64,000 nucleotides of DNA from contig JALNWG010000018.1 in the NCBI GenBank assembly GCA_023231005.1, positions 2,549 to 66,548 of the forward strand, written 5' to 3'. The notes beneath the pieces were generated by a model. It saw nothing but the letters and a program-made list of their open reading frames with translations. It had not been told where the DNA came from and made no database searches. Positions 23,002-40,018 of this stretch are shown here, in pieces; position 1 is the first letter of the stretch; every line of letters starts with the position of its first letter. The DNA is from Bacteroidales bacterium (GTDB lineage Bacteria > Bacteroidota > Bacteroidia > Bacteroidales > FEN-979). Both the position numbers and the translations under genes were made by a program.

Positions 23002-23205
23002 TTAGCCGCCGGAGATGAGGTGCAGCACCTGAACATCATCCCCTTCTTTTACTGTGGCAGTTTCATACTCCGGTTTGTTGATCAGCTTGCCGTTTATCTT
23101 AACAACCAGCATTTTAAACGTGAAATTTTTCACTTTCAGCAATTCCGAAACTGTAAGCAAATCCCCGCTTACCACTTCCGAAGTATTATTTAAAGTAACC
23201 TTCAT
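23002..23205 (-). CDS. thiS: ThiS/MoaD-family ubiquitin-like sulfur carrier protein
   Basis: 67 aa ending ..VQVLHLISGG (C-terminal Gly-Gly). Its start overlaps the stop of the upstream ThiF-like gene (TAATG). Confidence 0.7.
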   Translation of the reverse strand: MKVTLNNTSEVVSGDLLTVSELLKVKNFTFKMLVVKINGKLINKPEYETATVKEGDDVQVLHLISGG

Positions 23206-23825
23206 TATAAACCTTGCTTAACACCATTTAATAATAATTCCATTGTCACGTTTGCCTGCATATTGGCCACTATTCCGACTCTTGGAGCCAGGGGTGGGCA
23301 ATCCGGGGCAATTTCAGTAACTTCATCTCCGCAAATATAAAGATTATCCGACTGGCGTAAATGAATCGTGTCATTTTCACCCCATCCAGCCATTCCCAGC
23401 CCCACCACCAGCGGTATTGAAGGCATTTCTGTTAAAATGGTTTCAATGAACAACTGCTTTTGGTCAGCAAGGTCAAAGGCCTCAATAACCACGTCGCACC
23501 CATTGAAAATCACTGGAATATTTGCGCTTGTTAAGCGGAGATCATGAGGTTGTATCTTGATCAGCGGGTTTATCCGGGAGATGTTGTCCTGCAAGGCAAG
23601 GACTTTTTTCGTCCCGATCTGATCACGGAAAAAATATTGCCGGTTCAGGTTACCCTCGGAAATCACATCGAAATCAACAATTATCAACGTACCAATACCG
23701 ACCCTGGCCAAAGCGATGGCACAATTGGAGCCAAGTCCGCCACATCCGGCAATTCCTACTGTTTTAGTCGACAACGCTTCTTTTATTTGATTAAATGTCA
23801 ACTTTTTCATAATTAGGTATGGCAA
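23205..23825 (-). CDS. thiF: ThiF-family (short E1-like) sulfur-carrier adenylyltransferase
   Basis: 206 aa with the Rossmann motif VGIAGCGGLGSNCAIALARVGIG and NLNRQ. It is the short ThiF type and is translationally coupled to the ThiS-like gene. An alternative start is M at 23810. Confidence 0.7.
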   Translation of the reverse strand: MPYLIMKKLTFNQIKEALSTKTVGIAGCGGLGSNCAIALARVGIGTLIIVDFDVISEGNLNRQYFFRDQIGTKKVLALQDNISRINPLIKIQPHDLRLTSANIPVIFNGCDVVIEAFDLADQKQLFIETILTEMPSIPLVVGLGMAGWGENDTIHLRQSDNLYICGDEVTEIAPDCPPLAPRVGIVANMQANVTMELLLNGVKQGL

Positions 23826-25689: not shown

Positions 25690-25761
25690 TTCTTTTCCGA
25701 TATGCAAAAATAAACATATCGAACTTTTTGATTTACTTGTTATTAGATTGATTTTATTTGA

Positions 25762-25769
25762 TATTTTTG
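25762..25769 (+). promoter_or_regulatory. Candidate -7 promoter element (TAttTTTG) upstream of AOR gene
   Basis: TAttTTTG lies 28 nt upstream of ATG 25798 in an AT-rich 108-nt spacer. The -33 element is poorly defined. Confidence 0.3.
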
Positions 25770-25797: not shown

Positions 25798-27957
25798 ATG
25801 ACATTCGAAGATTTTAAAAAGACACATGCGCTGCTAACACAGTACAGTTATACCTGGGCCCCAATTGATAAGGGTTATAACAACCGTACGATCCACATCA
25901 ATGTTGGAGATCGCTCCATCCGCGAAAAACCCGTTTCCCAGCAAATGAAAGAGAAATTCATTGGTGGCAAAGGGTTTGATCTCCGGCTATTATGGGATGC
26001 CACCAATCCCAAAACACAGTGGAACGACCCCGACAATGAGATTGTTATTTCGGGTGGCCCTTGTTGTGGCATTACCCAATATTCCGGTTCCGGAAAAGCC
26101 ATCTGTTGTACCATCAGTCCGGAAACCGATATCGTAGTGGATTCAAATGTCGGCGGTTTTTTTGGCCCTTTCCTGAAATTCTGCGGATTCGATGCCATTG
26201 AGCTACAGGGGAAATCAGACCGTGACGTTATGGTGCTGTTTGACGAAGAGCGCTCGGTGATTGAAATTTATGAAGCCGCCGACCTGCCCTCCGATAGTCA
26301 CATTCTTGCTGAAGTATTGCATGACATGATTGCCAATCCGGGCAATGAAAAGGACAAGTATAATGTTGCCGTTGTGTCGGCAGGCACTGCCGCCGAACAC
26401 TCCCTGATCGGAATGCTTAATTTTTCGTTTTATGATATCAAACGAAAAAAAATCCGGCTGAAACAAGCCGGCCGCGGAGGTATCGGAACTGTACTGCGCG
26501 ATAAAAAGATCAAAGCCGTTGTAGCCCATGTAAAAACGATCGGAGGAAACCGGAACAATGTGGTGAACCTCGAAGCAATCCAGGAACGGGGCCGCCGTTT
26601 CAATAAGGAAATGCGGGAATTGGATGACAAACAATGCGAAATGCGTTCGAAAGGAACTGCCCACCTTACCCACATTATGAATGACTATGACCTGCTACCG
26701 GTCAAAAATTTCAAGTTTGGAAGTCACCCGGATGCATATAAAATCCGGGGAGATGTCTGGAAATCTTTTTTCACACAGAATGTTCCTGACGGATGCTGGG
26801 TTGGTTGCAATATGGCTTGCGCCAAGGGAGTCGATAATTACGAACTCCGCACAGGCCCTTACAAAGGAGATAAAGTGATTGTAGATGGTCCGGAATATGA
26901 AACCACCTCCTCCCTCGGATCCGTCGCCGGAATCTTCAATCCCGATTATACCATCGAAGCCAATTTTTATTGTGATACCTATGGCATTTGTACCATTAGC
27001 TGGGGAACCATCCTCGGTTTTATTATGGAGTGCTATGAAAACGGCATATTGAATGAAGAACGTACCGGAGGTTTGAAACTCAACTTTGGGAACTCCGATG
27101 CTGCCATGGAACTCCTTCACCGGGTTTCACGCGGAGAAGGGTTCGGATTGATTGCAGGACAAGGGATCCGGAAAATGAAAGCGTTGTTTGCCAAGAATGG
27201 ATGGGGTGATGCTGCCTTTATGCAAGATATTGGAATGGAAAATAAAGGACTTGAATATTCCCAATACGTTTCAAAAGAATCACTCGCCCAGCAAGGCGGA
27301 TATGCCATGACCAACAAAGGCCCGCAACACGATGAAGCCTGGCTGATCTTCATGGATATGGTCAACAACCAAATCCCCACTTTTGATAAAAAAGCTGAAG
27401 CGCTCCATTACTTTCCGATGTTCCGTACCTGGTTTGGATTGGCTGGCTTCTGTAAGCTGCCTTGGAATGATGTGGAACCAGAGGACAATGCAAAAACCTC
27501 AGAACCTGCTAAAGTCCCCGAACATGTCGACAACTACGTAACCATCTTCAATGCCGTAACCGGAGCCAACATCGATAAAGCTGAAATCATCCGCCAGTCG
27601 GAACGGGTCTATAACTTTCAGCGTATTTTCAGCATCCGTCGCGGATATGGCCTTAGAAAAAACGATGCTCAACCTTATCGGGCCTGCGGCCCTGTGACCA
27701 AAGAAGAATACGAATCGCGCGCCGAACGTTACGATAAACAATTGTTGGAACAGATCAACTTTGACCCTGCCGGAAAAACAACAGAAGAGAAAATGAAAGT
27801 ACTACGCGCCTATCGCGAAAACCGTTATGAACAACTTCTCGACGCTGTGTATGAACGCAGGGGCTGGAACAAAAACGGAGTCCCAAAAATCGAACACCTC
27901 AAAAAACTCGGAATGGACCTCCCTGAACTGCTGGAGGTGATTACACCACTTCAATAG
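25798..27957 (+). CDS. Aldehyde:ferredoxin oxidoreductase (AOR) family tungsto/molybdo-pterin enzyme
   Basis: 719 aa. The AOR N-domain is GYNNRTIHINVGD..FIGGKGFDLRLLWD..GPCCG. A Cys cluster GCWVGCNMAC is followed by the conserved DGPEYETTSSLGS. The long C-terminal alpha-helical domains are typical of the family. Confidence 0.85.
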   Translation: MTFEDFKKTHALLTQYSYTWAPIDKGYNNRTIHINVGDRSIREKPVSQQMKEKFIGGKGFDLRLLWDATNPKTQWNDPDNEIVISGGPCCGITQYSGSGKAICCTISPETDIVVDSNVGGFFGPFLKFCGFDAIELQGKSDRDVMVLFDEERSVIEIYEAADLPSDSHILAEVLHDMIANPGNEKDKYNVAVVSAGTAAEHSLIGMLNFSFYDIKRKKIRLKQAGRGGIGTVLRDKKIKAVVAHVKTIGGNRNNVVNLEAIQERGRRFNKEMRELDDKQCEMRSKGTAHLTHIMNDYDLLPVKNFKFGSHPDAYKIRGDVWKSFFTQNVPDGCWVGCNMACAKGVDNYELRTGPYKGDKVIVDGPEYETTSSLGSVAGIFNPDYTIEANFYCDTYGICTISWGTILGFIMECYENGILNEERTGGLKLNFGNSDAAMELLHRVSRGEGFGLIAGQGIRKMKALFAKNGWGDAAFMQDIGMENKGLEYSQYVSKESLAQQGGYAMTNKGPQHDEAWLIFMDMVNNQIPTFDKKAEALHYFPMFRTWFGLAGFCKLPWNDVEPEDNAKTSEPAKVPEHVDNYVTIFNAVTGANIDKAEIIRQSERVYNFQRIFSIRRGYGLRKNDAQPYRACGPVTKEEYESRAERYDKQLLEQINFDPAGKTTEEKMKVLRAYRENRYEQLLDAVYERRGWNKNGVPKIEHLKKLGMDLPELLEVITPLQ

Positions 27958-28077
27958 AAACATCAATATTTCCTTCCTTATCAGGTAAGTAACTTGTCCT
28001 GAAATTTTTGACATTTTAGGAGTTGTAAATTGATGCATATCGCTAAATAGACTATTTTTGTTTGGCAATTATCGTGC

Positions 28078-29046
28078 ATGGAAATGAAATTTACAATGAA
28101 AAAATCTCTTATCCTTATTTGTTTACTTGTTTCTATCTCTATGGGATTACTGGCACAGACTGGCATTTCCGGCGATCTGATCATCTTTCATGCCGGAAGC
28201 CTTTCAGTTCCTATGAAAGAATTGGCAAAGGAGTTCAAAAAGCTACATCCTAAGGTTAATATTTTGTTGGAGTCGGCCGGAAGTGTTGAGTCAGCACGGA
28301 AAATCACAGATCTGAAAAAGCCCTGCGATATCATGGCTTCTGCCGATTATAAGGTGATTGACAAAATGCTAATTCCACAATACAGCGACTGGAACATCAA
28401 GTTTGTATCCAATGAAATGTGTATTGTTTATAGTGAAAAATCTAGATATGCCAATCAGATCAATAATAAAAACTGGTTTAATATACTCTTAAAAGATGAT
28501 GTTGCCTTTGGGCGTGCCGATCCGAATTCCGACCCGTGTGGCTACCGTTCGGTAATGACCATGCAATTGGCAGAGAAATATTATAAACAACCCAACCTGG
28601 TCAACCGGTTAACCAACAAGGATAACAATTATATACGCCCGAAAGAGGTCGACCAGTTGGCATTGCTTGAATCACAATCGGTCGATTATGTCTTCCTTTA
28701 TAAATCAGTAGCCATTCAACATCATCTTAAATTTCTCATCCTCCCCGATGAGATCAATCTGAAACTTCCGAAATTCACTGCACTTTACAATACTGCCATC
28801 GTTCCAATCAATGGGAAAGAACCAGGACAAAAGGAATTGATGAAAGGCGAACCAATGATTTATGGAGTGACCTTACTTAAAACAGCTCCAAACAAACCGG
28901 CAGCTCTCGCTTTCCTAACCTTCATGCTTTCGAAAGATAACGGGATGAAAATCCTTGAAAAAGATGGTCAGCCCTCGGTAATTCCTCAGCAAAACCCAAA
29001 TTACGAGAAGATCCCTGCCGAATTAAAACCTTTTGTTAAAAAATAA
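28078..29046 (+). CDS. wtpA: Tungstate/molybdate ABC transporter substrate-binding protein (WtpA type)
   Basis: 322 aa with a signal peptide. LIIFHAGSLSVPMKELAKEFKKLHPKVNILLESAGSVESARKITDLKKPCDIMASADY matches my memory of the archaeal-type WtpA/ModA family (FHAGSL..AGS..ASAD). The real start may be M at 28096. Confidence 0.7.
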   Translation: MEMKFTMKKSLILICLLVSISMGLLAQTGISGDLIIFHAGSLSVPMKELAKEFKKLHPKVNILLESAGSVESARKITDLKKPCDIMASADYKVIDKMLIPQYSDWNIKFVSNEMCIVYSEKSRYANQINNKNWFNILLKDDVAFGRADPNSDPCGYRSVMTMQLAEKYYKQPNLVNRLTNKDNNYIRPKEVDQLALLESQSVDYVFLYKSVAIQHHLKFLILPDEINLKLPKFTALYNTAIVPINGKEPGQKELMKGEPMIYGVTLLKTAPNKPAALAFLTFMLSKDNGMKILEKDGQPSVIPQQNPNYEKIPAELKPFVKK

Positions 29047-29065
29047 CTGACCAAAATAAATTATT

Positions 29066-29971
29066 ATGAAGACTCATTTTTACCCTCTTACTTTCTTGGT
29101 TGTTCTGTTACTTCTGTCCTTCGGATGTAAAAAGGATGAAAACCCCTCTCCCCCATCAATCTCGCTGCTTACAGGTACGGCATACACACCCGACAAATCG
29201 GTTATTCTGGTGGGAGGACGGATCTACTTTGGCATTCAGGCTTCGGATCCCTCGGCAAACATCACCAACCTGGTGATTAAAAAGATCATGCCCAATGGAA
29301 CTGTCAAAGTGGTACTTGATTCGGGACTGAACTCAAGCGGATTCTCCGTAAATGAAACATTTTTTCAAAGTGTGGAAGAAGAAGCCAGGTGGACTTTTCA
29401 GGTAATGGATCGCAACCGTCAGTTTGCAACCACCTCCCTTACCCTCTTCAAAGATCCAAACTCTACCTGGGGCGGCATCTTTGAATACCCAAACCTGATC
29501 ATGGGATATCAAAACAATACCCAATATGGACAATTCTGTTGCCCTGCTACCGGTAAAATTTACAATGTTGATTCCGCTAACCTCTATCCTGAACTAATTG
29601 ATATCGTTACCTATTTTTATGTTGACGATAATATCCCCTCCCCTACTTTTTCCTCCCCGGGAGAACTCGGCGGCGGAATCACCGAATATTATCCATCCAT
29701 CGACTCATGGGCCACAAAACATTATACCAAATGGGATGTTAGCGTAGATACGGATCCTGTTCCGATTTCTGCCTACAACGCCTGTCACAACGATAGTTTA
29801 CTAATACTGGCTTACGACGACGTTTGGGGAAAGCGTAAATTCAAATGGGCTGATCCCGGAGATATCCTTCCATTTATGACAGCCGGTGGAAAAAAAGGAT
29901 TGATCCGCGTAATTTCAGCAGATCATGATGCAGCCGGAAAAATTACTTTTTCAATGAAAATTCAACAATAA
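29066..29971 (+). CDS. Lipoprotein of unknown function
   Basis: 301 aa with the signal peptide plus lipobox LLLLSFGC-KKDENPSPP. I recognise no family. It is co-directional and starts 19 nt after wtpA. Confidence 0.55.
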   Translation: MKTHFYPLTFLVVLLLLSFGCKKDENPSPPSISLLTGTAYTPDKSVILVGGRIYFGIQASDPSANITNLVIKKIMPNGTVKVVLDSGLNSSGFSVNETFFQSVEEEARWTFQVMDRNRQFATTSLTLFKDPNSTWGGIFEYPNLIMGYQNNTQYGQFCCPATGKIYNVDSANLYPELIDIVTYFYVDDNIPSPTFSSPGELGGGITEYYPSIDSWATKHYTKWDVSVDTDPVPISAYNACHNDSLLILAYDDVWGKRKFKWADPGDILPFMTAGGKKGLIRVISADHDAAGKITFSMKIQQ

Positions 29972-30005
29972 AACCAATTTAAATTTAACCTAAAATCAAG
30001 TAACT

Positions 30006-30878
30006 ATGAAAAAATGTTTACTCGCAGTCTTTGCACTCCTTGTATTTGGAGTAGTTTCCGCCCAGGATACCGTCACCGGATGGACTTTCCCTGTTAACTC
30101 CGGAGCAGATAGCCTGAATGCCGATCTGGGAACAGACCAGAATAAATCTTACGACATCCGTTTCCAATGGGTTCTCACTCCCACCATCGATTCAACATTG
30201 AACACCATCATCTTCGTTGACGGCGCAACAAATTATGCAGCTGCAACCGCAGGATGGGACAACGGCGCTGATGCAAAATTTTGGTCTGCCAAGTTTAAAG
30301 CATCGGGATACACCAACTTCAAGGTGTCTTCAAAACAAAAAAGCGATTCAACCCTGGCAGGGCCCCGTGATTTTAAATTACAATGGAGACTCAGTACTAC
30401 GTCTTATGAAGATGTGCCAAACAGCAATGTAACCCTGGCTGCCGACTGGACCACCGGTGTTGTTACCGAGCTCCCGGTTCCCATTACCAATCAAGGAACC
30501 GGTTCTATTTTCATTCGCTGGATCATGAGTTCGAATACCGATGTAAAAGGAGGAATTGTAGCTGCCACTGGAATTTCAGCGATCGACGACATTATCGTTA
30601 CCGCTACTGCTCCTTCCGGACAAAATGAAATGGTTTATTCCAACCGGTTACAAATCTATCCGAATCCAAATAAAGGTAATTTCACCTTGCAATCGACAGA
30701 ACCTTTAACTTCTCTTTCGGTATTCGATGCCAGTGGAAAAATGGTTTATAACCAGAAAACTTCAGGCACAACAAACCAAGCCATCGCCCTTCCAAATGCC
30801 AAACCAGGGATCTATTTCCTGAAAGTGATGTTTATGGATGATGAAAAAGTGTATTCAACCAGGATCATTGTTGAATAA
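30006..30878 (+). CDS. Secreted protein with T9SS C-terminal sorting domain, unknown N-terminal domain
   Basis: 290 aa with a signal peptide ending ..VVSAQ. The C-terminal ~80 aa LQIYPNPNKGNFTLQS..LSVFDASGKMVY..GIYFLKVMFMDDEKVYSTRIIVE is a type-A T9SS CTD pattern. Confidence 0.65.
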   Translation: MKKCLLAVFALLVFGVVSAQDTVTGWTFPVNSGADSLNADLGTDQNKSYDIRFQWVLTPTIDSTLNTIIFVDGATNYAAATAGWDNGADAKFWSAKFKASGYTNFKVSSKQKSDSTLAGPRDFKLQWRLSTTSYEDVPNSNVTLAADWTTGVVTELPVPITNQGTGSIFIRWIMSSNTDVKGGIVAATGISAIDDIIVTATAPSGQNEMVYSNRLQIYPNPNKGNFTLQSTEPLTSLSVFDASGKMVYNQKTSGTTNQAIALPNAKPGIYFLKVMFMDDEKVYSTRIIVE

Positions 30879-33228
30879 TTTTTCACTACCGGGAAAGAGA
30901 ACCATCTGTTTAATGTTGGTTCTCTTTCCTTTTTCATGGCTGTATGCAGGAGGGGAAATCCATGGAAAAGTAACAGATTCTATAATGCACCGGCCTTTGG
31001 CTGGAGCTCATATCATCATTCGGGATTCAGGAAAGGGTGTTTATTCCAATTCCGATGGATCTTATTTTCTGACCAACCTGCCTGAAGGGAAGGTTAAACT
31101 TACGATCTCTTTTGTTGGGTATTATCAGGAATCACGCACCGTATTCGTTAAAACCGGCCATCAACAGATCCTCAATGTGTTTATGGTCCCGAAAATCGAG
31201 GAGGCAGCAGAGGTGGAGATCTCCGATCACCGCCCGGGCCGGGGATCACAGGAAGTACCAGTAAGGATGGAGGTCATTACCTCCGGGAATATCTTTAATA
31301 CACCAGGACAAAACATCACCTCAGTACTTGATTATATCCCGGGGGTAAATCTTTCAACCACCATGGGAATCTTTTCGAACAACACGGTGGTTTCTATGCG
31401 GGGCCTCAGTGGAACTGACCAGGGCCGAACCTTGGTGCTGCTCGATGATGTCCCCCTGAACAAAGCCGACCAGGGATCTGTTAACTGGAACCTCATCAAC
31501 CGCGACAATGTAGATCGGATCGAAGTAACCAAAGGACCCGGCAATGCAAAGTACGGAAGCAGCGCCATGGGAGGCGTGATCAACATCATCACCAAACGCC
31601 CAACCAGAATTATCTCCGGTACCGCCACACTTGATTACGGAACCTTCAACACGGCAGGATTCCGCTATCAAATTGCCGGAAAACCAACCCATCTCGAAGA
31701 ACAAAAAGGATTTTCATACGCCCTCAACGGATTTTACCGACGCAGCGACGGATACAATGCTGAGATCCCTGAATATCTCGAAAAATACGACACCTTTTAT
31801 GTTAACAATTACTTACGTGAAGCCAACCTCGGATTAAAAGCCGGTTATCAATTCGACCCTTTGAACCAAGTCGAGGTCAGCGCCAATTTTTTCAACGACA
31901 AACGGGGAAGAGGAGTTGAAATTTATGAAGTGGATGGTGCCTATGAACGGCATAAAACCTGGCAAGCTTCCGTGAGATATCGCGGGGGAGCCGGTAAGGT
32001 ACGCTGGAACTTGCTTGCCTATACTCAAAATGAACACTTCGAACGTTTAAACGAGGCTATGAAAGAGGCTGAGTATAGCCTCTATCTGGTCAAATCCAAC
32101 CGCATCGACCAGGGAGCCCAACTCCATGTGCTGATTCCTGCCGGCAAACACCATCTCTTCACAACCGGATTTGATTATCAGGGAGGAAGCGTAGATGGCA
32201 ACGATATCTACTATACCTCCACCGACTTGATTAACAACAAAGGGAAGATGAATACTTTTGCCCTTTTCCTTCAAGATGAGATGAAGTTTTTTGATGAACG
32301 ACTTCAGATCAACCCCGGAATCCGCCTTAATATTGCCTTATTCCATGATGGTAGTTTTAACATCGACAATCCCTCCTATGCCATCCAGTATTTGGTCGAT
32401 TATCAGGATAGCCTCTTCCCCCATAAGGAATGGCTACAAGTTGATCCCAAGTTATCAATCCAATATCGCTTTTCTCCTCAATCAAGGGTTTATGTAACCG
32501 TAGCCCAGGGATTCCGCGCTCCTAACCTGGATGATCTCTGCCGAAGCGGTAAAATCACCAATGGCTTTAAAGTGGCAAACCCTGGATTAAAACCCGAAAT
32601 CCTCGATAATTTCGAGACGGGATTTGATCTTGTACTTTTTAAAAAACTACATCTCGCACCCAGCATTTATTATTCCATCGGAAGAGACTTTATGTATAAT
32701 GTCAGTACCGGCGATTCGGTTAATATGGGCTATAAACGCGCTCCCGTATTCATGAAGCAGAATATCAGCAAAGTGGAGATACTCGGATGCGAAGTGGAAA
32801 TAGATATCAATCCATTCGATTGGCTTAGTCTCACAGCAAATTATACTTATAATCATTCTGTGATCAGCCATTTTGTTCCATACGATTCAACCGTTGACAA
32901 AGATTTGAACGGAAAATTCCTGACTGATGTCCCTACACACAAGGCTACAGCCGGAGCTACTTTTACAAACAAAATTTTGAATGTTAATGTTTTATGGAAA
33001 TACATCGGATCAAGATGGATCAACGATGAAAATGAAGTAGATCCTTATCTGTTGGTTGCAAAATATCCAGCGTACAGTACCTTTGGTCTGCGTATCTGGC
33101 ACACCTTTTTCAAACATCTCACTGCAGCCGTGAACATCGACAATGTTTTTGATGAAATTTATATCGACGATCGGCTCCAGAGAAGCCCTGGAAGAATGAT
33201 CACCGGAGAAATCACAATAAAATTTTGA
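30838..33228 (+). CDS. TonB-dependent outer-membrane receptor (CarboxypepD_reg + plug + 22-strand barrel)
   Basis: It has an N-terminal carboxypeptidase-regulatory-like domain (IHGKVTDS..PLAGAHIIIRDSGKGVYSNSDGSYFLTNLPEGKVKLTISFVGY) and a plug (VVSMRGLSG..RTLVLLDDVPLN..VDRIEVTKGPGNAKYGSSAMGGVINIITK). The terminal aromatic ..GEITIKF closes the barrel. A more likely start is ATG 30913 (MLVLFPFSWLYA), after the upstream stop at 30878. Confidence 0.85.
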   Translation: MMKKCIQPGSLLNNFSLPGKRTICLMLVLFPFSWLYAGGEIHGKVTDSIMHRPLAGAHIIIRDSGKGVYSNSDGSYFLTNLPEGKVKLTISFVGYYQESRTVFVKTGHQQILNVFMVPKIEEAAEVEISDHRPGRGSQEVPVRMEVITSGNIFNTPGQNITSVLDYIPGVNLSTTMGIFSNNTVVSMRGLSGTDQGRTLVLLDDVPLNKADQGSVNWNLINRDNVDRIEVTKGPGNAKYGSSAMGGVINIITKRPTRIISGTATLDYGTFNTAGFRYQIAGKPTHLEEQKGFSYALNGFYRRSDGYNAEIPEYLEKYDTFYVNNYLREANLGLKAGYQFDPLNQVEVSANFFNDKRGRGVEIYEVDGAYERHKTWQASVRYRGGAGKVRWNLLAYTQNEHFERLNEAMKEAEYSLYLVKSNRIDQGAQLHVLIPAGKHHLFTTGFDYQGGSVDGNDIYYTSTDLINNKGKMNTFALFLQDEMKFFDERLQINPGIRLNIALFHDGSFNIDNPSYAIQYLVDYQDSLFPHKEWLQVDPKLSIQYRFSPQSRVYVTVAQGFRAPNLDDLCRSGKITNGFKVANPGLKPEILDNFETGFDLVLFKKLHLAPSIYYSIGRDFMYNVSTGDSVNMGYKRAPVFMKQNISKVEILGCEVEIDINPFDWLSLTANYTYNHSVISHFVPYDSTVDKDLNGKFLTDVPTHKATAGATFTNKILNVNVLWKYIGSRWINDENEVDPYLLVAKYPAYSTFGLRIWHTFFKHLTAAVNIDNVFDEIYIDDRLQRSPGRMITGEITIKF

Positions 33229-33252
33229 AAATCTAATTAACAACAACAAACC

Positions 33253-34335
33253 ATGAAAAAAATCACTCCCTTTTTAGTATTCATGTTACTTTTACAAACA
33301 CTCTTTGGACAACAAAAACAAAAAACAGTGAACACAACCACCCTTCCTGAAATTGAACCGAGGATCATTCCAGACAAATCAGATAAGAACAACAACTTTT
33401 ATGATAACGAAGAAAGCTATGCACTTCCGGTAAAAGATCTGTACATAGAAGGTGAAATTGAAAATCCCGGAAAAGTAGACTTCTCTAAGCTGCCAAAGCA
33501 CACCGTCATCGTTAAGGAAACGCTGTTATCCGGAGATACTTCAAACCGGTTTGTGGGAGCCTATCGCTATGATGGATATTCATTGTTCGATATTTTATGC
33601 AACCGTGTATTAAAGAAAAAGAATGTTACCGAATTCCGCCCGATCATCGACTTATATGTAGTGATCGAAAATGAAAAAGGTGAAAAAGTAGTGATGAGCT
33701 GGGGAGAAATCTACTATCCCAATTTCCTTCACAATTCCATCATTGCTACCACCGTGATGCGTATTGTCCCCAGTAAAACCAAAGATCTCTGGCCGTTGCC
33801 GACCCAAAGCAAACTTATCCTGGCCAACGACCTGATTACCGAACGCAACATCTCCAGCCCGGTAAAAATTACCGTTTGTTCTTACTCACGCGCCTATAAA
33901 GTGGTAAAGGATATGTCGCCGCTGTTCTCTGAAGAGGTGAAGGTTATAAATGGGGAAAAATCACTCGAAGCGATGACAGTGATCCCTGCCGGACTTCAAA
34001 AAGAGACCCTTCACACAGTATTTTATGGCAAAGGGCGCGGGATTCACAGCACCCAACCTTTTACAGGTGTTTATCTGAAAAATTATCTTGCATCCAAAAT
34101 AAAAGTTGACCGGAACAGCCTTCAAAAAGGGTTGGTCATCCTTGCTGGAATCGACGGATACCGCTCGGTTTATACGCTGAGTGAGATCATGAACCGGAAT
34201 GACCAGGCAGAAATTCTCATCGTTCCCTGTCCGGAAGATCAGAATGGTGGAAAATTCAGAATTTTCCCTTCCTGCGATTTCTTCTCCGATCGCGCTGTGA
34301 AGGGTCTTTCGGAAATCAGGATAGAAATGAAATAA
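33253..34335 (+). CDS. Secreted/periplasmic protein of unknown function with two internally similar halves
   Basis: 360 aa with a signal peptide (..LQTLFGQ). The halves LYIEGEIENPGKVDFSKLPKHTV..YRYDGYSLFDIL..VMSWGEIYYP and ..FTGVYLKNYL..AGIDGYRSVYTLSEIMN.. weakly recall the substrate domain of molybdopterin-dependent oxidoreductase-like proteins. That assignment has very low confidence. Confidence 0.45.
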   Translation: MKKITPFLVFMLLLQTLFGQQKQKTVNTTTLPEIEPRIIPDKSDKNNNFYDNEESYALPVKDLYIEGEIENPGKVDFSKLPKHTVIVKETLLSGDTSNRFVGAYRYDGYSLFDILCNRVLKKKNVTEFRPIIDLYVVIENEKGEKVVMSWGEIYYPNFLHNSIIATTVMRIVPSKTKDLWPLPTQSKLILANDLITERNISSPVKITVCSYSRAYKVVKDMSPLFSEEVKVINGEKSLEAMTVIPAGLQKETLHTVFYGKGRGIHSTQPFTGVYLKNYLASKIKVDRNSLQKGLVILAGIDGYRSVYTLSEIMNRNDQAEILIVPCPEDQNGGKFRIFPSCDFFSDRAVKGLSEIRIEMK

Positions 34336-34350
34336 CGAAATAGAGAAATT

Positions 34351-35133
34351 TTGAAACGTCTACCAACCATACAACTTATTTTTATTCTTCTAGGAGGGTT
34401 GGTATTGCTGTTCATTGTGGCACCATTGCTTGGGATGGCTTTGAAAACCACACCACATCAGATCTTTGAAACAGCCGGGGAAGAGGAAGTCCGCCAGAGT
34501 ATCTGGCTCACAATTGTGACTTCATTTTCCGGAACGGTGTTCTTTTCTGTGGCAGCTATTCCGTTAGCCTATCTGTTGGCAAGGAAAAATTTTCCCTTGA
34601 AAAAGTTAGTTTCCGGTATCATCGACCTGCCCGTAGTGATCCCGCACTCCGCTGCCGGAATTGCATTGCTGGGATTTGTATCGCGCGATTCCGCCCTTGG
34701 GCAAATGGGATCGCTGGTAGGACTGAATTTTGTAGGACATCCGGCCGGAATTTCCATTGCCATGGCTTTTGTCAGCATCCCCTATCTGATCAATGCTGCA
34801 CGCGATGGCTTTGCCGGAGTACCTGAACGATTGGAAAAAGCTGCCCTTACCTTAGGAGCATCGCCCCTTCGGGTTTTTTTTACCATTACCCTCCCATTGG
34901 CCTGGCGAAACATCGTTTCTGGCCTCATCATGATGTTTGCCCGTGGAATGAGTGAATTCGGAGCTGTTATTGTGGTTGCTTATCACCCCATGATTACTCC
35001 GGTTTTGATTTATGAACGGTTTGGAGCTTTCGGATTAAAATATGCACGACCTGTTTCCGTCCTTTTCATCGCGATCTCACTGGTTCTGTTCATTACTTTA
35101 CGATGGCTGGCGAAAGAAAAGGAAGAAAAATAG
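34351..35133 (+). CDS. wtpB: Tungstate/molybdate ABC transporter permease
   Basis: 260 aa with a TTG start and about 6 TM segments. The EAA-like loop is INAARDGFAGVPERLEKAALTLGASPLRVFFTITLP, and it follows the CysT/ModB-type permease pattern. Confidence 0.7.
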   Translation: MKRLPTIQLIFILLGGLVLLFIVAPLLGMALKTTPHQIFETAGEEEVRQSIWLTIVTSFSGTVFFSVAAIPLAYLLARKNFPLKKLVSGIIDLPVVIPHSAAGIALLGFVSRDSALGQMGSLVGLNFVGHPAGISIAMAFVSIPYLINAARDGFAGVPERLEKAALTLGASPLRVFFTITLPLAWRNIVSGLIMMFARGMSEFGAVIVVAYHPMITPVLIYERFGAFGLKYARPVSVLFIAISLVLFITLRWLAKEKEEK

Positions 35134-35160
35134 CCAAATGGTGAAATTGATTTTGGAGAA

Positions 35161-36213
35161 ATGTTAGAAATAAAAGATATTTCGAAAAAGTTTCCGGATT
35201 TTGAGTTGAATGGAATTTCATTCCGCGTTGCGAAGGGAGATTATTTTATTCTGCTTGGAGAGTCGGGGGCCGGAAAATCAATGATCCTGGAAACAATTGC
35301 CGGGCTGGTCCGTCCCGATTCAGGAGAAATCTGGTTGGACGGAAAAGAGATAAGCCATACAAAGATCCAGGAGCGGAAAATCGGACTGGTGTTTCAGGAT
35401 CATGCAGTTTTTCCCCACTTAACCGTGATGGAAAATATAGCTTTTGCCTTGCATGCTCAAGGATTATCCCGAGAAGAAAAGCGCCTCAGAGTGAAGGAAA
35501 TCGCCCGGTTGTTGGGCATTTCCGGATTGCTCCACCGCAGTCCGACAAGTCTTTCCGGAGGCGAGTTGCAACGGGTAGCGCTGGGCCGCACTTTAATTCA
35601 GAAGCCAAGGGTTCTTTTGTTAGATGAACCGCTTGCTTCACTCGATATCCAGCTGAAGCGTGATTTACGAAGACTCCTCCGTTCCATTCACCAGGAAGGA
35701 CAAACCATCATTCATGTAACCCACGATTATGAAGAAGCCCTCGCTCTGGGTACAAATATTGCCGTAATCCATAAAGGACAGGTCATTCAGACAGGGACAC
35801 CGGAAGCAGTGTTTACCCATCCGAAGTCAGAATTTGTCGCCCATTTCGTTGGGGTTAAAAACTTTTTCAGCGTTCATCTTGAAATCAGAGATCAAATTAC
35901 TTTCGCTATAACAAACAACAATATACCCATTCGTATCGTTTCCGAATCAATCAATGAAGATGCTTTTATTCTGATTCGGGGTGAAGATATCCTGGTTTCG
36001 AATACACCGGTAGAAACCAGCGCCACCAATAACTTCCCAGGAAAAATAGTCGAAATTGTTCCCGGGGTACAGGGGGTGAATTTAACCGTGAACATTGGAA
36101 TTGAAATGCATGCCCTCATAACCCGCGAATCGGTGGAAAAATTAAATTTGAAGGCCGGTGGAAAATGCTGGATTCATTTCAAAGCAACAGCGGTAAAAAT
36201 GATAGCGAAATAG
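35161..36213 (+). CDS. wtpC: Tungstate/molybdate ABC transporter ATP-binding protein with C-terminal TOBE-like domain
   Basis: 350 aa with Walker A GESGAGKS, signature LSGGELQRVALGR and Walker B LLLDEPLASLD. A C-terminal ~110-aa OB/TOBE-like extension is present (..NNFPGKIVEIVPGVQGVNLTV..). Confidence 0.8.
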   Translation: MLEIKDISKKFPDFELNGISFRVAKGDYFILLGESGAGKSMILETIAGLVRPDSGEIWLDGKEISHTKIQERKIGLVFQDHAVFPHLTVMENIAFALHAQGLSREEKRLRVKEIARLLGISGLLHRSPTSLSGGELQRVALGRTLIQKPRVLLLDEPLASLDIQLKRDLRRLLRSIHQEGQTIIHVTHDYEEALALGTNIAVIHKGQVIQTGTPEAVFTHPKSEFVAHFVGVKNFFSVHLEIRDQITFAITNNNIPIRIVSESINEDAFILIRGEDILVSNTPVETSATNNFPGKIVEIVPGVQGVNLTVNIGIEMHALITRESVEKLNLKAGGKCWIHFKATAVKMIAK

Positions 36214-36223
36214 CGGAATTTTT

Positions 36224-37423
36224 ATGATAAAATTTGAAGAAGCCTTAAATATTGTATTAAAGGAAGCTGTCACGTTAGGAACCGAGCGTGTTGAACTGAT
36301 CAAATCAACCGGAAGGGTTCTGGCAGAGGATATTTTTTCGGACCTCGATATGCCTCCTTTTGACAAATCGGCAATGGATGGATATGCCTGCCGGGCGAAA
36401 GATTTACAATCCAATTTAGTCGAAGGAGTCGTTCCTATAACCCTGCAGATGATAGAAACCATCCCGGCTGGTAAAATTCCCGAAAAGACGATCAATGCTG
36501 GTCAGTGCTCAAAAATCATGACCGGGGCCATGCTTCCGGAAGGGGCTGATCACGTGGTGATGGTCGAGGACACAGAACCAGTTGACGAACAACATATCCG
36601 GATCACCAATGCCCTTAAAGGCCCGAATATCTGCCGGAAGGCCGAAGATATAAAAAATGGGGATCTGGTTATCAGAAAAGGAGAAATCCTTACCCCTGCA
36701 CACATCGCTGTATTGGCGGCCGTGGGTGCAGTAAATCCCCGGGTAACAACCCTTCCCAGGGTGGGGATCATTTCTACCGGAGATGAATTGGTGGAACCAG
36801 ATTTTAAACCGCAACGATCCCAGATCCGAAACTCCAACGCCTGGCAAATTATGGCTCAGGCTTTTCAGGTCCCGGTAAATCCATACTACCTCGGCATCGC
36901 CAACGATAATGCAATGTCCCTTAGGGAAATAATCGAAAAAGCGCTGGAAGAAAGTGATGTGGTATTGCTAACCGGCGGCGTGTCGATGGGTGATTTCGAT
37001 TATGTACCGGAAATCCTGAATCAAGCAGGTGTGAATATCCTTTTTAAAAGTATCGCCATTCAACCCGGAAAACCCACCCTCTTTGGCCGTAAAAAAAATC
37101 AGTTTCTCTTTGGACTCCCCGGAAACCCGGTCTCCTCTTTTGTTCTTTTCGAAATGCTCGTAAAACCATTCCTGCTGCGACTCATGGGAAGTACCGCCAT
37201 CCCACCAACGTTGGAAATGACCATGGGCCTTGATTTTTCAAAAAAAAATTCGGTCAGAAAATTCATGATGCCGGTAATCATCAAAGGAGGACAAGTGTTT
37301 CCCATCGAATATCACGGATCGGCACACATCAATGCATACACTTCAGCCAACGGAATTCTGATAATGGAGATCGGAACCACAGAAATCAAAAAAGGGGAAA
37401 AAGTTCATGTACGACCACTTTAA
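36224..37423 (+). CDS. moeA: Molybdopterin molybdenum/tungsten transferase MoeA
   Basis: 399 aa with MPPFDKSAMDGYA, IISTGDELVEP, VLLTGGVSMGDFDYV, KPGKPTLFG and GLPGNPVSS motifs. Confidence 0.9.
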   Translation: MIKFEEALNIVLKEAVTLGTERVELIKSTGRVLAEDIFSDLDMPPFDKSAMDGYACRAKDLQSNLVEGVVPITLQMIETIPAGKIPEKTINAGQCSKIMTGAMLPEGADHVVMVEDTEPVDEQHIRITNALKGPNICRKAEDIKNGDLVIRKGEILTPAHIAVLAAVGAVNPRVTTLPRVGIISTGDELVEPDFKPQRSQIRNSNAWQIMAQAFQVPVNPYYLGIANDNAMSLREIIEKALEESDVVLLTGGVSMGDFDYVPEILNQAGVNILFKSIAIQPGKPTLFGRKKNQFLFGLPGNPVSSFVLFEMLVKPFLLRLMGSTAIPPTLEMTMGLDFSKKNSVRKFMMPVIIKGGQVFPIEYHGSAHINAYTSANGILIMEIGTTEIKKGEKVHVRPL

Positions 37424-38207
37424 CCGAAAGATTGACTACCTCCGGGTTTCAGTTACCGACCGGTGCAACCTTCGATGTACATATTGTATGCCCGCCTCCG
37501 GAGTTAAGCTCCTGTCGCACCACGACATTCTTTCTTTTGAAGAAATCCTGGAGGTAATCCAGAAATCGGTCGACCTGGGGATCACCAAAATCCGACTTAC
37601 CGGAGGGGAACCCCTGGTCCGTAAGGGAATATTGTCGCTGGTGGAAAACATTGCAAAAACAAAAGGAATCCTCGACCTTGGATTAACAACCAATGGAATA
37701 TTGCTTTCCGATTTTGCCCCGGACCTTGCCAAAGCAGGCCTTCGGCGGATCAATATCAGTCTGGATACCCTGGATCCTGAAAAATTTAAACTTCTTACCC
37801 GCGGAGGGGAACTTCACAAAGTGTTGGAAGGAATTGAATCAGCGAAAATTTCCGGCCTCTCCCCAATCAAAATTAATTGTGTCGTCCGCCAGTCTTCAGA
37901 TGAACCCGATGCCCAGGCAGTCAGGGAATTTTGCCGTATCCATGGACTGGAAGCGCGGTTTATTCATGAAATGAGCCTGGCAGATGGACGTTTTACCATC
38001 GTAGAAAACGGTCATGGCGGCGATTGCAGGCATTGTAACCGGTTGCGGTTAACCGCCAACGGGATGATCCGCCCATGCCTGTTCAACGACATGGAATTCA
38101 GCATCCGGAAACTTGGCATCAAACAAGCCCTTGAAAATGCAATTTCACAAAAACCCAATCAGGGAACCATCGCTATGTCGGGACAATTTCATAATATTGG
38201 AGGATAA
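37407..38207 (+). CDS. moaA: GTP 3',8-cyclase MoaA (compact radical-SAM form)
   Basis: 266 aa. It has the radical-SAM motif YLRVSVTDRCNLRCTYC, a second cluster CRHCNRLRLTANGMIRPC (C-x2-C-x13-C) and a C-terminal ..NIGG. It overlaps moeA by 17 nt. Confidence 0.85.
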   Translation: MYDHFNRKIDYLRVSVTDRCNLRCTYCMPASGVKLLSHHDILSFEEILEVIQKSVDLGITKIRLTGGEPLVRKGILSLVENIAKTKGILDLGLTTNGILLSDFAPDLAKAGLRRINISLDTLDPEKFKLLTRGGELHKVLEGIESAKISGLSPIKINCVVRQSSDEPDAQAVREFCRIHGLEARFIHEMSLADGRFTIVENGHGGDCRHCNRLRLTANGMIRPCLFNDMEFSIRKLGIKQALENAISQKPNQGTIAMSGQFHNIGG

Positions 38208-38323: not shown

Positions 38324-38776
38324 ATGTCCAAATTATCCCACGTTAGTGATTCCGGTAAAGCCAATATGGTAGATGTTGGGGCTAAGTCCGTACAATTACG
38401 AACTGCCAGAGCCTGTGGAATGATCCGGATGAATCCGGAAACCGTGGCTTTGATCCGCGAAAATAAAATGAAAAAGGGCGACGTTCTAACGGTTGCCGAG
38501 ATTGCCGGAATCCAGGGGGGCAAACGAACCAGCGATTTGATTCCACTCTGTCATCCCCTGCTGATCACAAAAATGGAGGTACATGCTTCCCTTTGTGAAA
38601 CCGGTGTAAAGATAGAAAGCATTGCCCGTTGCATCGGTCAAACCGGCATCGAAATGGAAGCGCTCACGGCTGTTTCCATTGCGCTGCTCACCATTTACGA
38701 TATGTGTAAAGCGGCGGATAAGGCAATGTTGATAGAAGGAATACAATTGGTGGAAAAGACAAAAGAAGATCTTTGA
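38324..38776 (+). CDS. moaC: Cyclic pyranopterin monophosphate synthase MoaC
   Basis: 150 aa with LSHVSDSGKANMVDVGAK, TVAEIAGIQGGKRTSDLIPLCHPL and TGIEMEALTAVSIALLTIYDMCKA motifs. Confidence 0.95.
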   Translation: MSKLSHVSDSGKANMVDVGAKSVQLRTARACGMIRMNPETVALIRENKMKKGDVLTVAEIAGIQGGKRTSDLIPLCHPLLITKMEVHASLCETGVKIESIARCIGQTGIEMEALTAVSIALLTIYDMCKAADKAMLIEGIQLVEKTKEDL

Positions 38777-38816: not shown

Positions 38817-39749
38817 ATGCAAGAGATTCAGGTTATTTCGGTCAATATTTCGGAGAAAAAGAGAACGGCTAAGCGTCCGGTTAATCAGATAGAAATTACC
38901 CACAACGGCATTTTGGGGGATGCCCATGCAGGCCCCTGGAACCGGCAGGTAAGTTTATTAGGAATGGAAAGCATCCGGAAATTTGAAAAGGAGGCCGGCA
39001 GGAGAATCCAACCAGGTGAATTTGCCGAAAACATCACCACAAACGGAGTTGAGTTGTGGAAATTACATCCCTTAGATCGATTCACCGCCGGGGACCTTGA
39101 ACTTGAAGTAACCCAGATTGGGAAAGAGTGCCATGGAGCCTCATGTGCCATTTTCAAAGAAGTAGGAAATTGCGTGATGCCCAAAGAGGGGATCTTTTGC
39201 AGGGTCTTGAGCCCGGGAACAGTAAAGTCGGGGATGAACCTGGAATTACATCCGAAAATATACCGGGTAATGATCATCACACTCAGCGACCGTGCCAGTT
39301 CCGGAGAATACGAAGACAAATCCGGCCCACGGATAAAAGAACTTCTGGAGACCCAATTGACAATTGAGAATTGTCAATTCTCAATTGTCAATTCTCTCAT
39401 TCCCGATGATCCTCATAAATTGGGGGACCTGCTCCATAAAGCGAAAGAGGAGTTGACCGATATTGTGATCACTACCGGAGGAACCGGGATCGGTCCCCGT
39501 GATTTCACCCCGGAGGTTGTAAAACCCTTGCTCGATAAAGAAATACCCGGAATTATGGAAGCAATCCGGATGAAATACGGACAGGAAAAAACCGCTGCAT
39601 TAGTCAGCCGCTCTGTAGCAGGAATTATGGGAAAATCCCTCCTGTTTACTTTACCAGGAAGTGTAAATGCAGTGAACGAATATATGGTTGAAATTTTCCG
39701 GTCGCTGAAACATCTAACCTATATGCTCCACGGATTAGATATACATTAA
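38817..39749 (+). CDS. MOSC domain fused to MogA/MoaB-type molybdopterin adenylyltransferase
   Basis: 310 aa. The N-terminal ~145 aa form a MOSC-like beta-barrel (..GILGDAHAGPWNRQVSLL..GEFAENITT..LEVTQIGKECH). The C-terminal MogA/MoaB domain has ITLSDRASSGEYEDKSGP, ITTGGTGIGPRDFTPEV and LPGSVNAV. Confidence 0.8.
   Translation: MQEIQVISVNISEKKRTAKRPVNQIEITHNGILGDAHAGPWNRQVSLLGMESIRKFEKEAGRRIQPGEFAENITTNGVELWKLHPLDRFTAGDLELEVTQIGKECHGASCAIFKEVGNCVMPKEGIFCRVLSPGTVKSGMNLELHPKIYRVMIITLSDRASSGEYEDKSGPRIKELLETQLTIENCQFSIVNSLIPDDPHKLGDLLHKAKEELTDIVITTGGTGIGPRDFTPEVVKPLLDKEIPGIMEAIRMKYGQEKTAALVSRSVAGIMGKSLLFTLPGSVNAVNEYMVEIFRSLKHLTYMLHGLDIH
39354..39395. repeat. In-frame coding heptamer array (CAATTGA CAATTGA GAATTGT CAATTCT CAATTGT CAATTCT) containing a perfect 39-bp palindrome (39355-39393)
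   Basis: I checked base by base. Arms 39355-39373 and 39375-39393 are perfectly complementary around T39374. The 42 bp encode QLTIENCQFSIVNS within the MogA-like domain. Confidence 0.95.
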
Positions 39750-39816: not shown

Positions 39817-39901
39817 TACCCCGGGCGGGACTTGAACCCGCACGACCGCAATGGTCACAGGATTTTAAGTCCTGCGTGTCTACCAGTTCCACCACCAGGG
39901 C
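39817..39901 (-). tRNA. tRNA-Leu (anticodon TAA), class II with long variable arm
   Basis: Reverse complement: GCCCTGG TG GTGG AACTGGTAGA CACG CAGGA CTTAAAA TCCTG TGACCATTGCGGTCGT GCGGG TTCAAGT CCCGC CCGGGGT A. The cloverleaf folds by hand. Acceptor pairs 1-72 and 5-68 are G-U wobbles. No CCA is encoded. Confidence 0.8.

Positions 39902-39945: not shown

Positions 39946-40018
<73 letters not shown>

Follow-up and report, generated by a model that had tools for sequence, protein, structure and literature searches.

A TonB-dependent receptor cassette nested in a Bacteroidales tungstate transporter operon: a putative whole-envelope tungsten or molybdenum acquisition system

We analyzed a 64,000-nucleotide (nt) stretch of a Bacteroidales genome (assembly GCA_023231005.1, contig JALNWG010000018.1, positions 2,549 to 66,548; hereafter, the window), in which the gene for a TonB-dependent receptor (TBDR) and the genes of its partner proteins lie inside an operon encoding a WtpABC-type ATP-binding cassette (ABC) importer of tungstate and molybdate. 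Judging from sequence and gene context, we consider it reasonably probable that these genes encode a whole-envelope acquisition system for tungsten (or molybdenum). A role in tungsten and molybdenum (W/Mo) metabolism had been proposed for the receptor block in the initial annotation of the window, and it is supported both by comparative synteny and by the ModE-type operators that the cassette itself possesses in many relatives. Tungsten would be the likelier of the two metals, given what is established about the families of the WtpA-type binding protein and of the neighboring aldehyde:ferredoxin oxidoreductase (AOR).

The receptor cassette and its host operon

Window proteins were assigned by Pfam and NCBIfam profile scans, with coordinates taken from a map of open reading frames (ORFs), and every element of the nesting described in the initial annotation was recovered. 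All genes of the block are co-directional and arranged head to tail. The first, wtpA (28078..29046, +), encodes the periplasmic tungstate/molybdate-binding protein of the ABC importer. It is followed by the genes of a lipoprotein that is a conserved partner of the TBDR (Lipo301; 29066..29971, +), a secreted or surface-attached protein with a C-terminal sorting domain of the type IX secretion system (T9SS) (T9SS290; 30006..30878, +), the TBDR itself, with a barrel of the 22-strand type (30838..33228, +), and P360, a Sec-exported periplasmic protein of 360 amino acids (aa) (33253..34335, +). The block then returns to the importer, with a WtpB-like permease (34351..35133, +) and a WtpC-like ATPase (35161..36213, +). 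WtpA contains the Pfam domain SBP_bac_11 and scores above the equivalog cutoffs of both NF003196 (376.2 bits; cutoff 355) and TIGR03730 (325.4 bits; cutoff 242.75). The permease (Pfam BPD_transp_1) and the ATPase (Pfam ABC_tran with a C-terminal, oxyanion-binding TOBE domain) have the tungstate transporter families as their best NCBIfam matches, under the equivalog cutoffs in both cases: NF040839 (WtpB) at 278.9 bits, with a cutoff of 340, and NF040840 (WtpC) at 370.5 bits, with a cutoff of 440.

The gaps along the block, which the initial annotation had put at 15-35 nt, measured 19, 34, -41, 24, 15, 27, and 10 nt, so that the description stands except for the single overlap at the TBDR gene, which arises when the longest ORF is taken for that gene. 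Since the cassette begins just 19 nt from wtpA, we infer that the two are transcribed together in the window.

The flanks of the block are likewise those of W/Mo metabolism, as had been suggested. Upstream lies the gene of a tungstopterin-type AOR (25798..27957, +), an enzyme that matches Pfam AFOR_N with 151 bits and AFOR_C with 322 bits and that probably uses the metal once it has been imported. Downstream, Pfam and NCBIfam scans identified moeA (36224-37423, +), moaA (37407-38207, +), moaC (38324-38776, +), and a gene for a 310-aa fusion of a MOSC domain with a MogA/MoaB-like MoCF_biosynth domain (38817-39749, +).

Recurrence of the nested layout in relatives

The initial annotation had proposed asking, by comparative genomics, whether homologous receptor blocks accompany W/Mo genes or are consistently tied to an unrelated substrate. 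We sampled related loci (labeled with L-numbers) using P360, the TBDR, or Lipo301 as anchor. Under all three anchors, the receptor blocks were linked to wtpABC, P360, molybdenum cofactor (Moco) biosynthesis genes, and AOR, and no consistent association with an unrelated substrate was found.

For the P360-anchored sampling, one genome per species was scanned. P360 was encoded in 390 of these species-representative genomes, and the best 80 loci were fetched and classified by tblastn. The nested layout, wtpA-[Lipo301(-T9SS290)-TBDR]-P360-wtpB-wtpC, was observed in 21-22 of the 80 loci, which usually continue into moeA-moaA-moaC-mogA and often have AOR in front. A similar number (18-21 of 80) carry wtpA-P360-wtpBC with no receptor. 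In six loci, TBDR-P360 stands beside wtpABC in another order, and in three it occurs with no wtp genes within 10 kb. A separate P360 clade, composed entirely of lipoproteins and located in GntP-type clusters, accounts for 13 loci. Loci outside these layouts lay too near contig ends and were left unclassified. In most loci, whether nested or not, wtpC is still followed by moeA-moaA-moaC-mogA, and AOR is kept upstream of the wtp cluster in many, at 84-92% identity.

The two other samplings gave a similar picture. When six TBDR homologs at 39-46% identity were looked up, a P360 gene was found downstream in all six, directly after the TBDR in five and separated from it by a NapH-like gene in the sixth (L084). 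Five of the six have a Lipo301-like gene upstream of the TBDR, and four contain a WtpA/WtpB/WtpC cluster, in which WtpA passes the WtpA cutoffs and which is accompanied in every case (4/4) by a gene for a ModE-N-like regulator. A Lipo301-anchored scan of metagenomes yielded 32 loci, with WtpA immediately upstream in 24 of the 29 informative ones and P360 after the TBDR in 16 of 17.

In a neighbor-joining tree of P360, nested and receptor-less loci interleave at short distances (L021 versus L019/L022, and L020 versus L024), which implies repeated gain or loss of the cassette, in every case at the wtpA|P360 junction. This revises the earlier description of a four-gene insertion. Three of the genes, Lipo301, T9SS290, and TBDR, do form the inserted unit. 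P360 does not belong to it, because it is already resident in the 18-21 receptor-less wtp loci. In Bacteroidales, P360 is thus an accessory that resides in the wtp operon itself, besides being the constant downstream partner of the TBDR.

Several loci held features of interest in their own right. In L084, the gene between TBDR and P360 (L084:12369-13769) encodes a NapH/MauN-like membrane ferredoxin (Fer4_5, 466 aa) within a wtp-nested cluster. Two further conserved genes, which accompany a second, more divergent Lipo-TBDR pair, were seen at L081:1361-2612 and L085:3521-4772 and in L036, L046, L047, L049, L064, and L066; they encode proteins of ~243 aa, with weak similarity to TiaS and to methanogenesis marker 11, and of ~189 aa, with no family. 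One full Bacteroidales-type cluster (L006, SACF01000023.1; AOR 89% and P360 69% identical) comes from a metagenome-assembled genome (MAG) labeled “Alphaproteobacteria bacterium”, probably a binning or labeling error.

A ModE-type operator accompanies the cassette

A 24-nt palindrome, CG[AT]TATG-N10-CATA[AT]CG, occurs in 35 perfect copies in 1.49 Mb of related loci, compared with 0.02 expected, and further copies were found in metagenome loci. Its half-sites and spacing match the Escherichia coli ModE consensus, ATCGNTATATA-N6-TATATANCGAT (PMC545781).

The distribution of this box ties the cassette to the metal genes. Within ~100 nt before Lipo301, perfect boxes are present in at least 12 loci (L003, L008, L012, L015, L025, L033, L035, L090, L111, L112, L116, and L117), and boxes with one or two mismatches in eight more; they lie 10-16 nt from the ATG where starts were mapped, and up to 81 nt away (L033). 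Boxes also stand ~76-80 nt before the AOR start codon (L025, L029, L053, L090, L106, and L114), directly before wtpA (L074), and in the divergent region between the gene of the ModE-N-like regulator and that of a 546-aa NAD-type aldehyde dehydrogenase (ALDH; Pfam Aldedh). In three loci, L033, L035, and L111, the box precedes a cassette that has no wtp genes next to it, which argues that the cassette belongs to the W/Mo regulon and is not a passenger of the transporter operon. We regard this as the strongest argument for the proposed role.

The putative regulator is a protein of 124-127 aa whose gene stands ahead of wtpA in 35 of the 87 loci that were fetched first, as well as in further metagenome loci. 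Its best match is TIGR00637, the DNA-binding domain of the ModE repressor, at 74-76 bits, under the cutoff of 98.5.

In the window, the only perfect box, CGATATGCAAAAATAAACATATCG (25698..25721), lies 76 nt before the AOR start codon and ~40 nt upstream of a Bacteroidetes -7-like element, TATTTTTG (25762-25769). A second such element, also TATTTTTG, is found 17 nt before the wtpA ATG (28053..28060, +), by consensus match only; we take TAnnTTTG to be the Bacteroidetes -7 element from general knowledge of promoters in this group. Unlike its relatives, the window has neither the regulator gene nor ALDH in the interval from AOR to wtpA. We rejected a degenerate site upstream of wtpA (28019..28042; three mismatches, with a perfect right half, GCATATCG) as a wtpA operator, as the window holds five sites with at most three mismatches against 7.6 expected.

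The position of the box differs among its targets. Its location upstream of the -7-like element suggests activation at AOR, and its close abutment on the start codon suggests repression at the cassette, the regulator-wtpA unit, and ALDH. Together, the boxes at ALDH and AOR have the look of a metal-sparing switch, in which aldehyde oxidation would pass between a W-dependent enzyme and one that is cofactor-free. The ALDH gene (L001:2381-4021, -) is divergent from the ModE-N-like gene and wtpA, with the box common to them, and has equivalents in L002, L006-L008, L011, L017, L029, L031, L037, L039-L041, L053, L055, L088-L092, L095, L106-L109, and L114. Separately, the region upstream of wtpA in L019 (L019:4790-4860) contains, after the ModE-N-like gene, a tandem heptamer, (GGGATGC)n, of ~10 copies.

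P360, a predicted internally duplicated protein of the sulfite oxidase fold

P360 carries a signal peptide and belongs to a large family of “hypothetical” proteins. A search at E≤0.001 of a collection of 5.8 billion sequences retrieved 2134 homologs, all with this annotation, from Bacteroidales and Bacteroidota MAGs, and an exhaustive hidden Markov model search yielded 330 clusters at 50% identity. Neither P360 nor either of its halves matches a Pfam family at E≤10, and permissive thresholds gave no usable Pfam or NCBIfam match for P360, its halves, Lipo301, or the N-terminal domain of T9SS290. The two similar halves that the initial annotation had noticed were borne out by hhalign, which aligned them over 133 columns with a probability of 99% (E 3e-18) at 11% identity, a similarity that BLASTP of half 1 against half 2 did not detect.

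Several comparisons converge on the fold class of the sulfite oxidase (SUOX) family. The AlphaFold2 (AF2) model of P360 (pLDDT 79.8, pTM 0.79) has the molybdoprotein SoxC as its top Foldseek match (probability 0.96, low TM), and this was the sole meaningful one; the others, mostly staphylococcal superantigen-like proteins, were noise. A profile of close P360 homologs found no match in the PDB, and the broadened profile returned only YedY and SorA, both SUOX family members and both weak. Distant relatives, at 22-27% identity, match PF00174 (Oxidored_molyb) in both halves. Some of these relatives (P0454, P0458, P0460, P0471, P0472, P0476, and P0498; 585-620 aa) are fusions of tandem Oxidored_molyb-like domains with TP_methylase, a tetrapyrrole (corrin/porphyrin) methylase domain.

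The cofactor of the SUOX family appears to be absent from P360. The position of the Moco-ligating Cys of YedY aligns to a non-Cys column in P360, and the signal peptides of the family are of the Sec type, as in the window, or of the lipoprotein type, and never twin-arginine, making export with a preloaded cofactor impossible. Pairs of Asp, Arg, and Glu residues are invariant in both halves (D193/R198/E152 and D342/R347/E311). From the model and the alignments, P360 is thus predicted to be a cofactor-less, internally duplicated SUOX-fold protein of the periplasm.

One homolog is a natural fusion of a P360-like region with a WtpA domain (L087:2205-4076; protein P0390, 623 aa), which was found on two contigs and scores 288 bits against TIGR03730, above the cutoff. 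The fusion gene stands alone, without adjacent wtpBC.

The loci of the GntP type (L045, L050, L051, L056, L061, L065, L068, L073, L076, and L077; P360 at ~10001-11070 in each) are tightly packed clusters whose P360 proteins form a monophyletic clade, and the W/Mo model gives no explanation for them. Besides the GntP permease, they hold a glycerate kinase (DUF4147+MOFRL), an ABM monooxygenase, a zinc-dependent alcohol dehydrogenase (Zn-ADH), and a GFO/IDH/MocA oxidoreductase.

The receptor and its surface partners

The domain architecture attributed to the TBDR, CarboxypepD_reg-plug-barrel, was upheld by matches to Pfam CarbopepD_reg_2, to PF07715 (Plug; 78.9 bits, aa 138-247), and to PF00593 (TonB_dep_Rec_b-barrel; 148.6 bits, aa 300-770). 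Assignment to a substrate family proved more elusive. The best NCBIfam match, TonB-hemin (TIGR01785), reaches 187.7 bits, under the cutoff of 316.85, and the SusC/RagA family (TIGR04056) yields 112.1 bits where 368.25 would be needed. In the PDB, the nearest sequences are those of CirA, PhuR, and BtuB, with the alignment limited to the plug or part of the barrel; CntO was also among the PDB matches. These comparisons place the TBDR outside every characterized substrate family. In the database, it is deposited as protein P0121, annotated at 747 aa with a start 49 codons downstream and without a signal peptide. The longest ORF, which shares 41 nt with the T9SS290 gene, restores the signal peptide, and its 796 aa are in keeping with the homologs, which measure 774-806 aa; the start as deposited was therefore probably mis-called.

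Lipo301 was confirmed as the lipoprotein described in the initial annotation, with the lipobox LSFGC (LLLLSFG|C-KKDEN). The sequence [GSA]C-K-K-[DE] is kept in all 26 aligned homologs, and the K-(D/E) motif that follows the lipobox resembles what we take to be the surface-export signal of Bacteroidetes, so Lipo301 is probably surface-exposed. Its AF2 model (pLDDT 81.8) consists of an N-terminal Ig/PKD-like beta-sandwich and a C-terminal domain. Foldseek returned only generic Ig/PKD-like sandwiches, no informative neighbor for the C-terminal domain, and no hint of a ligand. No SusD/RagB match was obtained with Pfam even at E≤10.

The sorting domain ascribed to T9SS290 also held up: it is of type A and occupies aa 217-289, with 51.2 bits for PF18962 (cutoff 27) and 49 bits for TIGR04183 (cutoff 23). 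The N-terminal domain is conserved as well, with an abundance of conserved Trp and Lys residues. With 53 homologs in the fetched loci, T9SS290 is an optional member of the cassette, missing from the nested loci L059, L074, and L075. We also considered whether it might have diverged from Lipo301 or P360 as a paralog, and rejected the idea because hhalign found no relation to either.

Boundaries and control elements in the window

The MOSC-MogA/MoaB-like fusion gene, which is kept in relatives, is the final gene of the co-directional block. Directly past it are two tRNA genes (39817-39901 and 39946-40018, -), followed by mutS (40062-42665, -), and these mark the 3' boundary of the cluster. We found no intergenic terminator-like site across 25.4-40.1 kb, in a scan that performed at chance level overall and is uninformative for Bacteroidetes; a sigma-70 promoter scan of the window was likewise at chance level and equally uninformative for this group. 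An Rfam scan of the window at gathering thresholds detected no Moco or cobalamin riboswitch, matching only the two tRNAs, and a riboswitch-controlled operon was rejected on this basis. A ThiF-family gene at 23205-23825 was considered as a possible MoeB; it scores as thiamine ThiF and was not counted in the system.

Proposed mechanism and alternative explanations

We propose that a metal species, most parsimoniously free tungstate, is what the system would transport, and that any of the three unfamiliar proteins, Lipo301, T9SS290, and P360, may bind it. Lipo301 and T9SS290 would capture it at the cell surface, by analogy with the HmuY/HmuR pair, and the TBDR would provide TonB-energized, high-affinity passage across the outer membrane. 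In the periplasm, P360 may work together with WtpA, by handing over or conditioning the ligand. Tungstate would then be imported by WtpBC, and MoeA would serve to insert it into the pterin cofactor of the neighboring AOR. In relatives, the ModE-N-like regulator would act on the 24-nt box, repressing the regulator-wtpA unit, the cassette, and ALDH in metal-replete cells and activating AOR.

A number of observations weigh against such a dedicated system. The nearest named families of the TBDR are heme and siderophore receptors, at scores under their cutoffs, and profile and structure searches identified no oxyanion-binding site in Lipo301, T9SS290, or P360. With respect to regulation, no ModE-like regulator gene was found in the 64-kb window, where the sole significant box precedes AOR and none stands before wtpA or the cassette, and the ModE-N-like regulator of the relatives has no Mop/TOBE sensor domains. 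At least five cassettes have no wtp genes in the available DNA (L035, L047, and L064, 10 kb; L082 and L083, 8 kb), and those of L111 and L115 likewise appear to be without them. The distinct P360 clade (13 loci, lipoproteins throughout) resides in GntP-permease/glycerate-kinase/dehydrogenase clusters that contain no W/Mo genes, which indicates that the P360 fold is not tied to W/Mo exclusively. Finally, all relatives are MAGs or metagenome contigs, and the carriers seen are uncultivated.

A tentative and rather unlikely alternative retains the W/Mo role with a cargo other than an oxyanion. The receptor would then take up a thiometalate (tetrathiotungstate or tetrathiomolybdate), a polyoxo or mineral-derived species, or a chelate such as a catecholate-type xeno-metallophore complex, being the form that would dominate in sulfidic or organic-rich anoxic habitats, and P360 would act in the periplasm as a converter or chaperone, freeing or transforming the metal and delivering tungstate to WtpA, much as periplasmic siderophore-release proteins free their metal. 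TBDRs typically carry ligands that are too large or too scarce for porins, and P360 does look required in the periplasm, with one homolog fused to WtpA. Such a step would also suit the oxyanion-enzyme fold of P360, its invariant Asp/Arg/Glu pairs, and the NapH-like Fe-S membrane protein encoded between TBDR and P360 in L084. Tetrathiotungstate and tetrathiomolybdate are typical of sulfidic anoxic habitats, and, according to the locus titles, the hosts derive from anoxic sediments, peat, lake hypolimnia, and digesters. A further point in favor is that a methanogen can draw on thiomolybdate and on molybdenite (PMC11484787). However, family scans found no metallophore biosynthesis genes in or near the cluster, and P360 has neither a redox cofactor motif nor a conserved catalytic Cys at the SUOX active-site position. 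Its occurrence in receptor-less wtp operons, moreover, implies a job independent of the TBDR cargo.

It is improbable that the cargo is unrelated to W/Mo (heme or iron, a corrinoid, or a glycan) and that the cassette came to lie in the wtp operon by accident or through loose co-regulation. The resemblance to heme/hemoglobin and siderophore receptor subfamilies in NCBIfam and to CirA, PhuR, and BtuB in the PDB would point this way, as would the automatic annotation of TBDR homologs by JGI as “iron complex outer membrane receptor”. Yet the scores are far under the cutoffs (188 versus 317, and 112 versus 368 for SusC), and the PDB alignments cover mainly the generic plug. No SusD, HmuY, or BtuG/BtuF-type partner and no cobalamin riboswitch accompany the receptor, whereas the linkage to wtpA, P360, and wtpBC holds down to 39% TBDR identity in three independent samplings, and the ModE-type box of AOR and wtp is found at the cassette too, including cassettes away from wtp genes.

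Scavenging of the pterin cofactor itself (the Mo or W cofactor or a precursor), with P360 as its periplasmic carrier, is very improbable. In its favor, P360 has the fold with which the SUOX family binds molybdopterin, and a ligand the size of a cofactor would justify a TBDR. Against it, P360 has no Mo-ligating Cys at the YedY-aligned position and occurs receptor-less in many operons, the partner at the inner membrane is a genuine oxyanion transporter of the WtpA type, and the operon itself provides for making the cofactor de novo and for inserting the metal.

Implications

The general assumption is that molybdate and tungstate cross the outer membrane by diffusion, using its porins. Our full-text searches found no published description of a TonB-dependent tungstate or molybdate receptor or uptake system, in line with the view of the initial annotation that an energized receptor dedicated to W/Mo would be new, and searches for a ModE regulon that includes a TBDR likewise yielded nothing of relevance. 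A widespread, metal-regulated cassette of this kind would, if true, account for the supply of picomolar tungsten to the AOR-type enzymes of anaerobes living in anoxic sediments, peat, and digesters. It would also extend the range of TBDR substrates to a metal that forms oxyanions, and it would assign functions to three large families of “hypothetical” proteins. The operator would define a compact W/Mo regulon comprising AOR, the cofactor-free aldehyde dehydrogenase, wtp, and the cassette. Should the cargo instead be a thiometalate or chelate that P360 converts, this would constitute both a new class of TBDR substrate and a new step in W/Mo uptake.

Comparison with known systems

The inner-membrane part of the cluster resembles the WtpABC importer of the Pyrococcus furiosus type, with WtpA above the equivalog cutoffs and with WtpB and WtpC as best matches, and its regulation in relatives resembles that of ModABC under ModE, with a ModE-N-like regulator and an E. 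coli-type box before the transporter. The known systems consist of three inner-membrane or periplasmic components, whereas here a TBDR cassette and P360 are embedded among them; in addition, the regulator has no Mop/TOBE domains, and WtpB and WtpC fall under the equivalog cutoffs.

At the outer membrane, the closest organization is that of the Bacteroidetes systems in which a TBDR works with a surface lipoprotein that captures the ligand, namely HmuY/HmuR for heme, BtuG/BtuB for cobalamin, and XusB/XusA for xenosiderophores. The likeness lies in the lipoprotein gene directly upstream of a CarboxypepD_reg-type TBDR and in the conserved lipobox followed by a K-(D/E) motif that resembles an export signal. 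In contrast, Lipo301 has no sequence or fold relation to HmuY, BtuG, XusB, or SusD, the cassette includes an extra T9SS-anchored protein, and context and regulation point to W/Mo as the ligand. TonB-dependent uptake of metals other than iron is exemplified by ZnuD for zinc, OprC/NosA for copper, CntO for metal-pseudopaline complexes, and the lanthanide receptors. As in these systems, the metal is scarce and a metal-regulated TBDR stands beside an ABC importer. The present system differs from them in that the metal would be oxyanion-forming, the TBDR belongs to none of their families, and additional surface and periplasmic proteins take part.

P360 finds its counterpart in the SUOX family (YedY/MsrP, SorA, and SoxC; PF00174), whose fold both of its halves are predicted to share. 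Its tandem duplication, the absence of the Moco Cys and of a twin-arginine signal, and a score under the Pfam threshold set it apart.

The nearest precedent for the proposed function is the molybdenum route of Pseudomonas aeruginosa, in which, as cited in PMC11734730, ModA secreted by a type VI secretion system (T6SS) cooperates with IcmP, a protein of the outer membrane. As far as that citation goes, the two share an outer-membrane route that is assisted by a surface or extracellular protein and feeds an ABC importer. They differ in export (T6SS there, T9SS and the lipoprotein pathway here), in the outer-membrane component (IcmP, as presented there, is no TBDR), and in the binder, which is ModA itself in P. 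aeruginosa, whereas here WtpA is periplasmic and the surface proteins come from unrelated families. The individual parts of the Bacteroidales system, that is, the Wtp importer, the Bacteroidetes TBDR with its lipoprotein, the T9SS cargo, the ModE box, and the SUOX fold, are all known, and it is their combination, the substrate it implies, and the P360 family that are newly described here.

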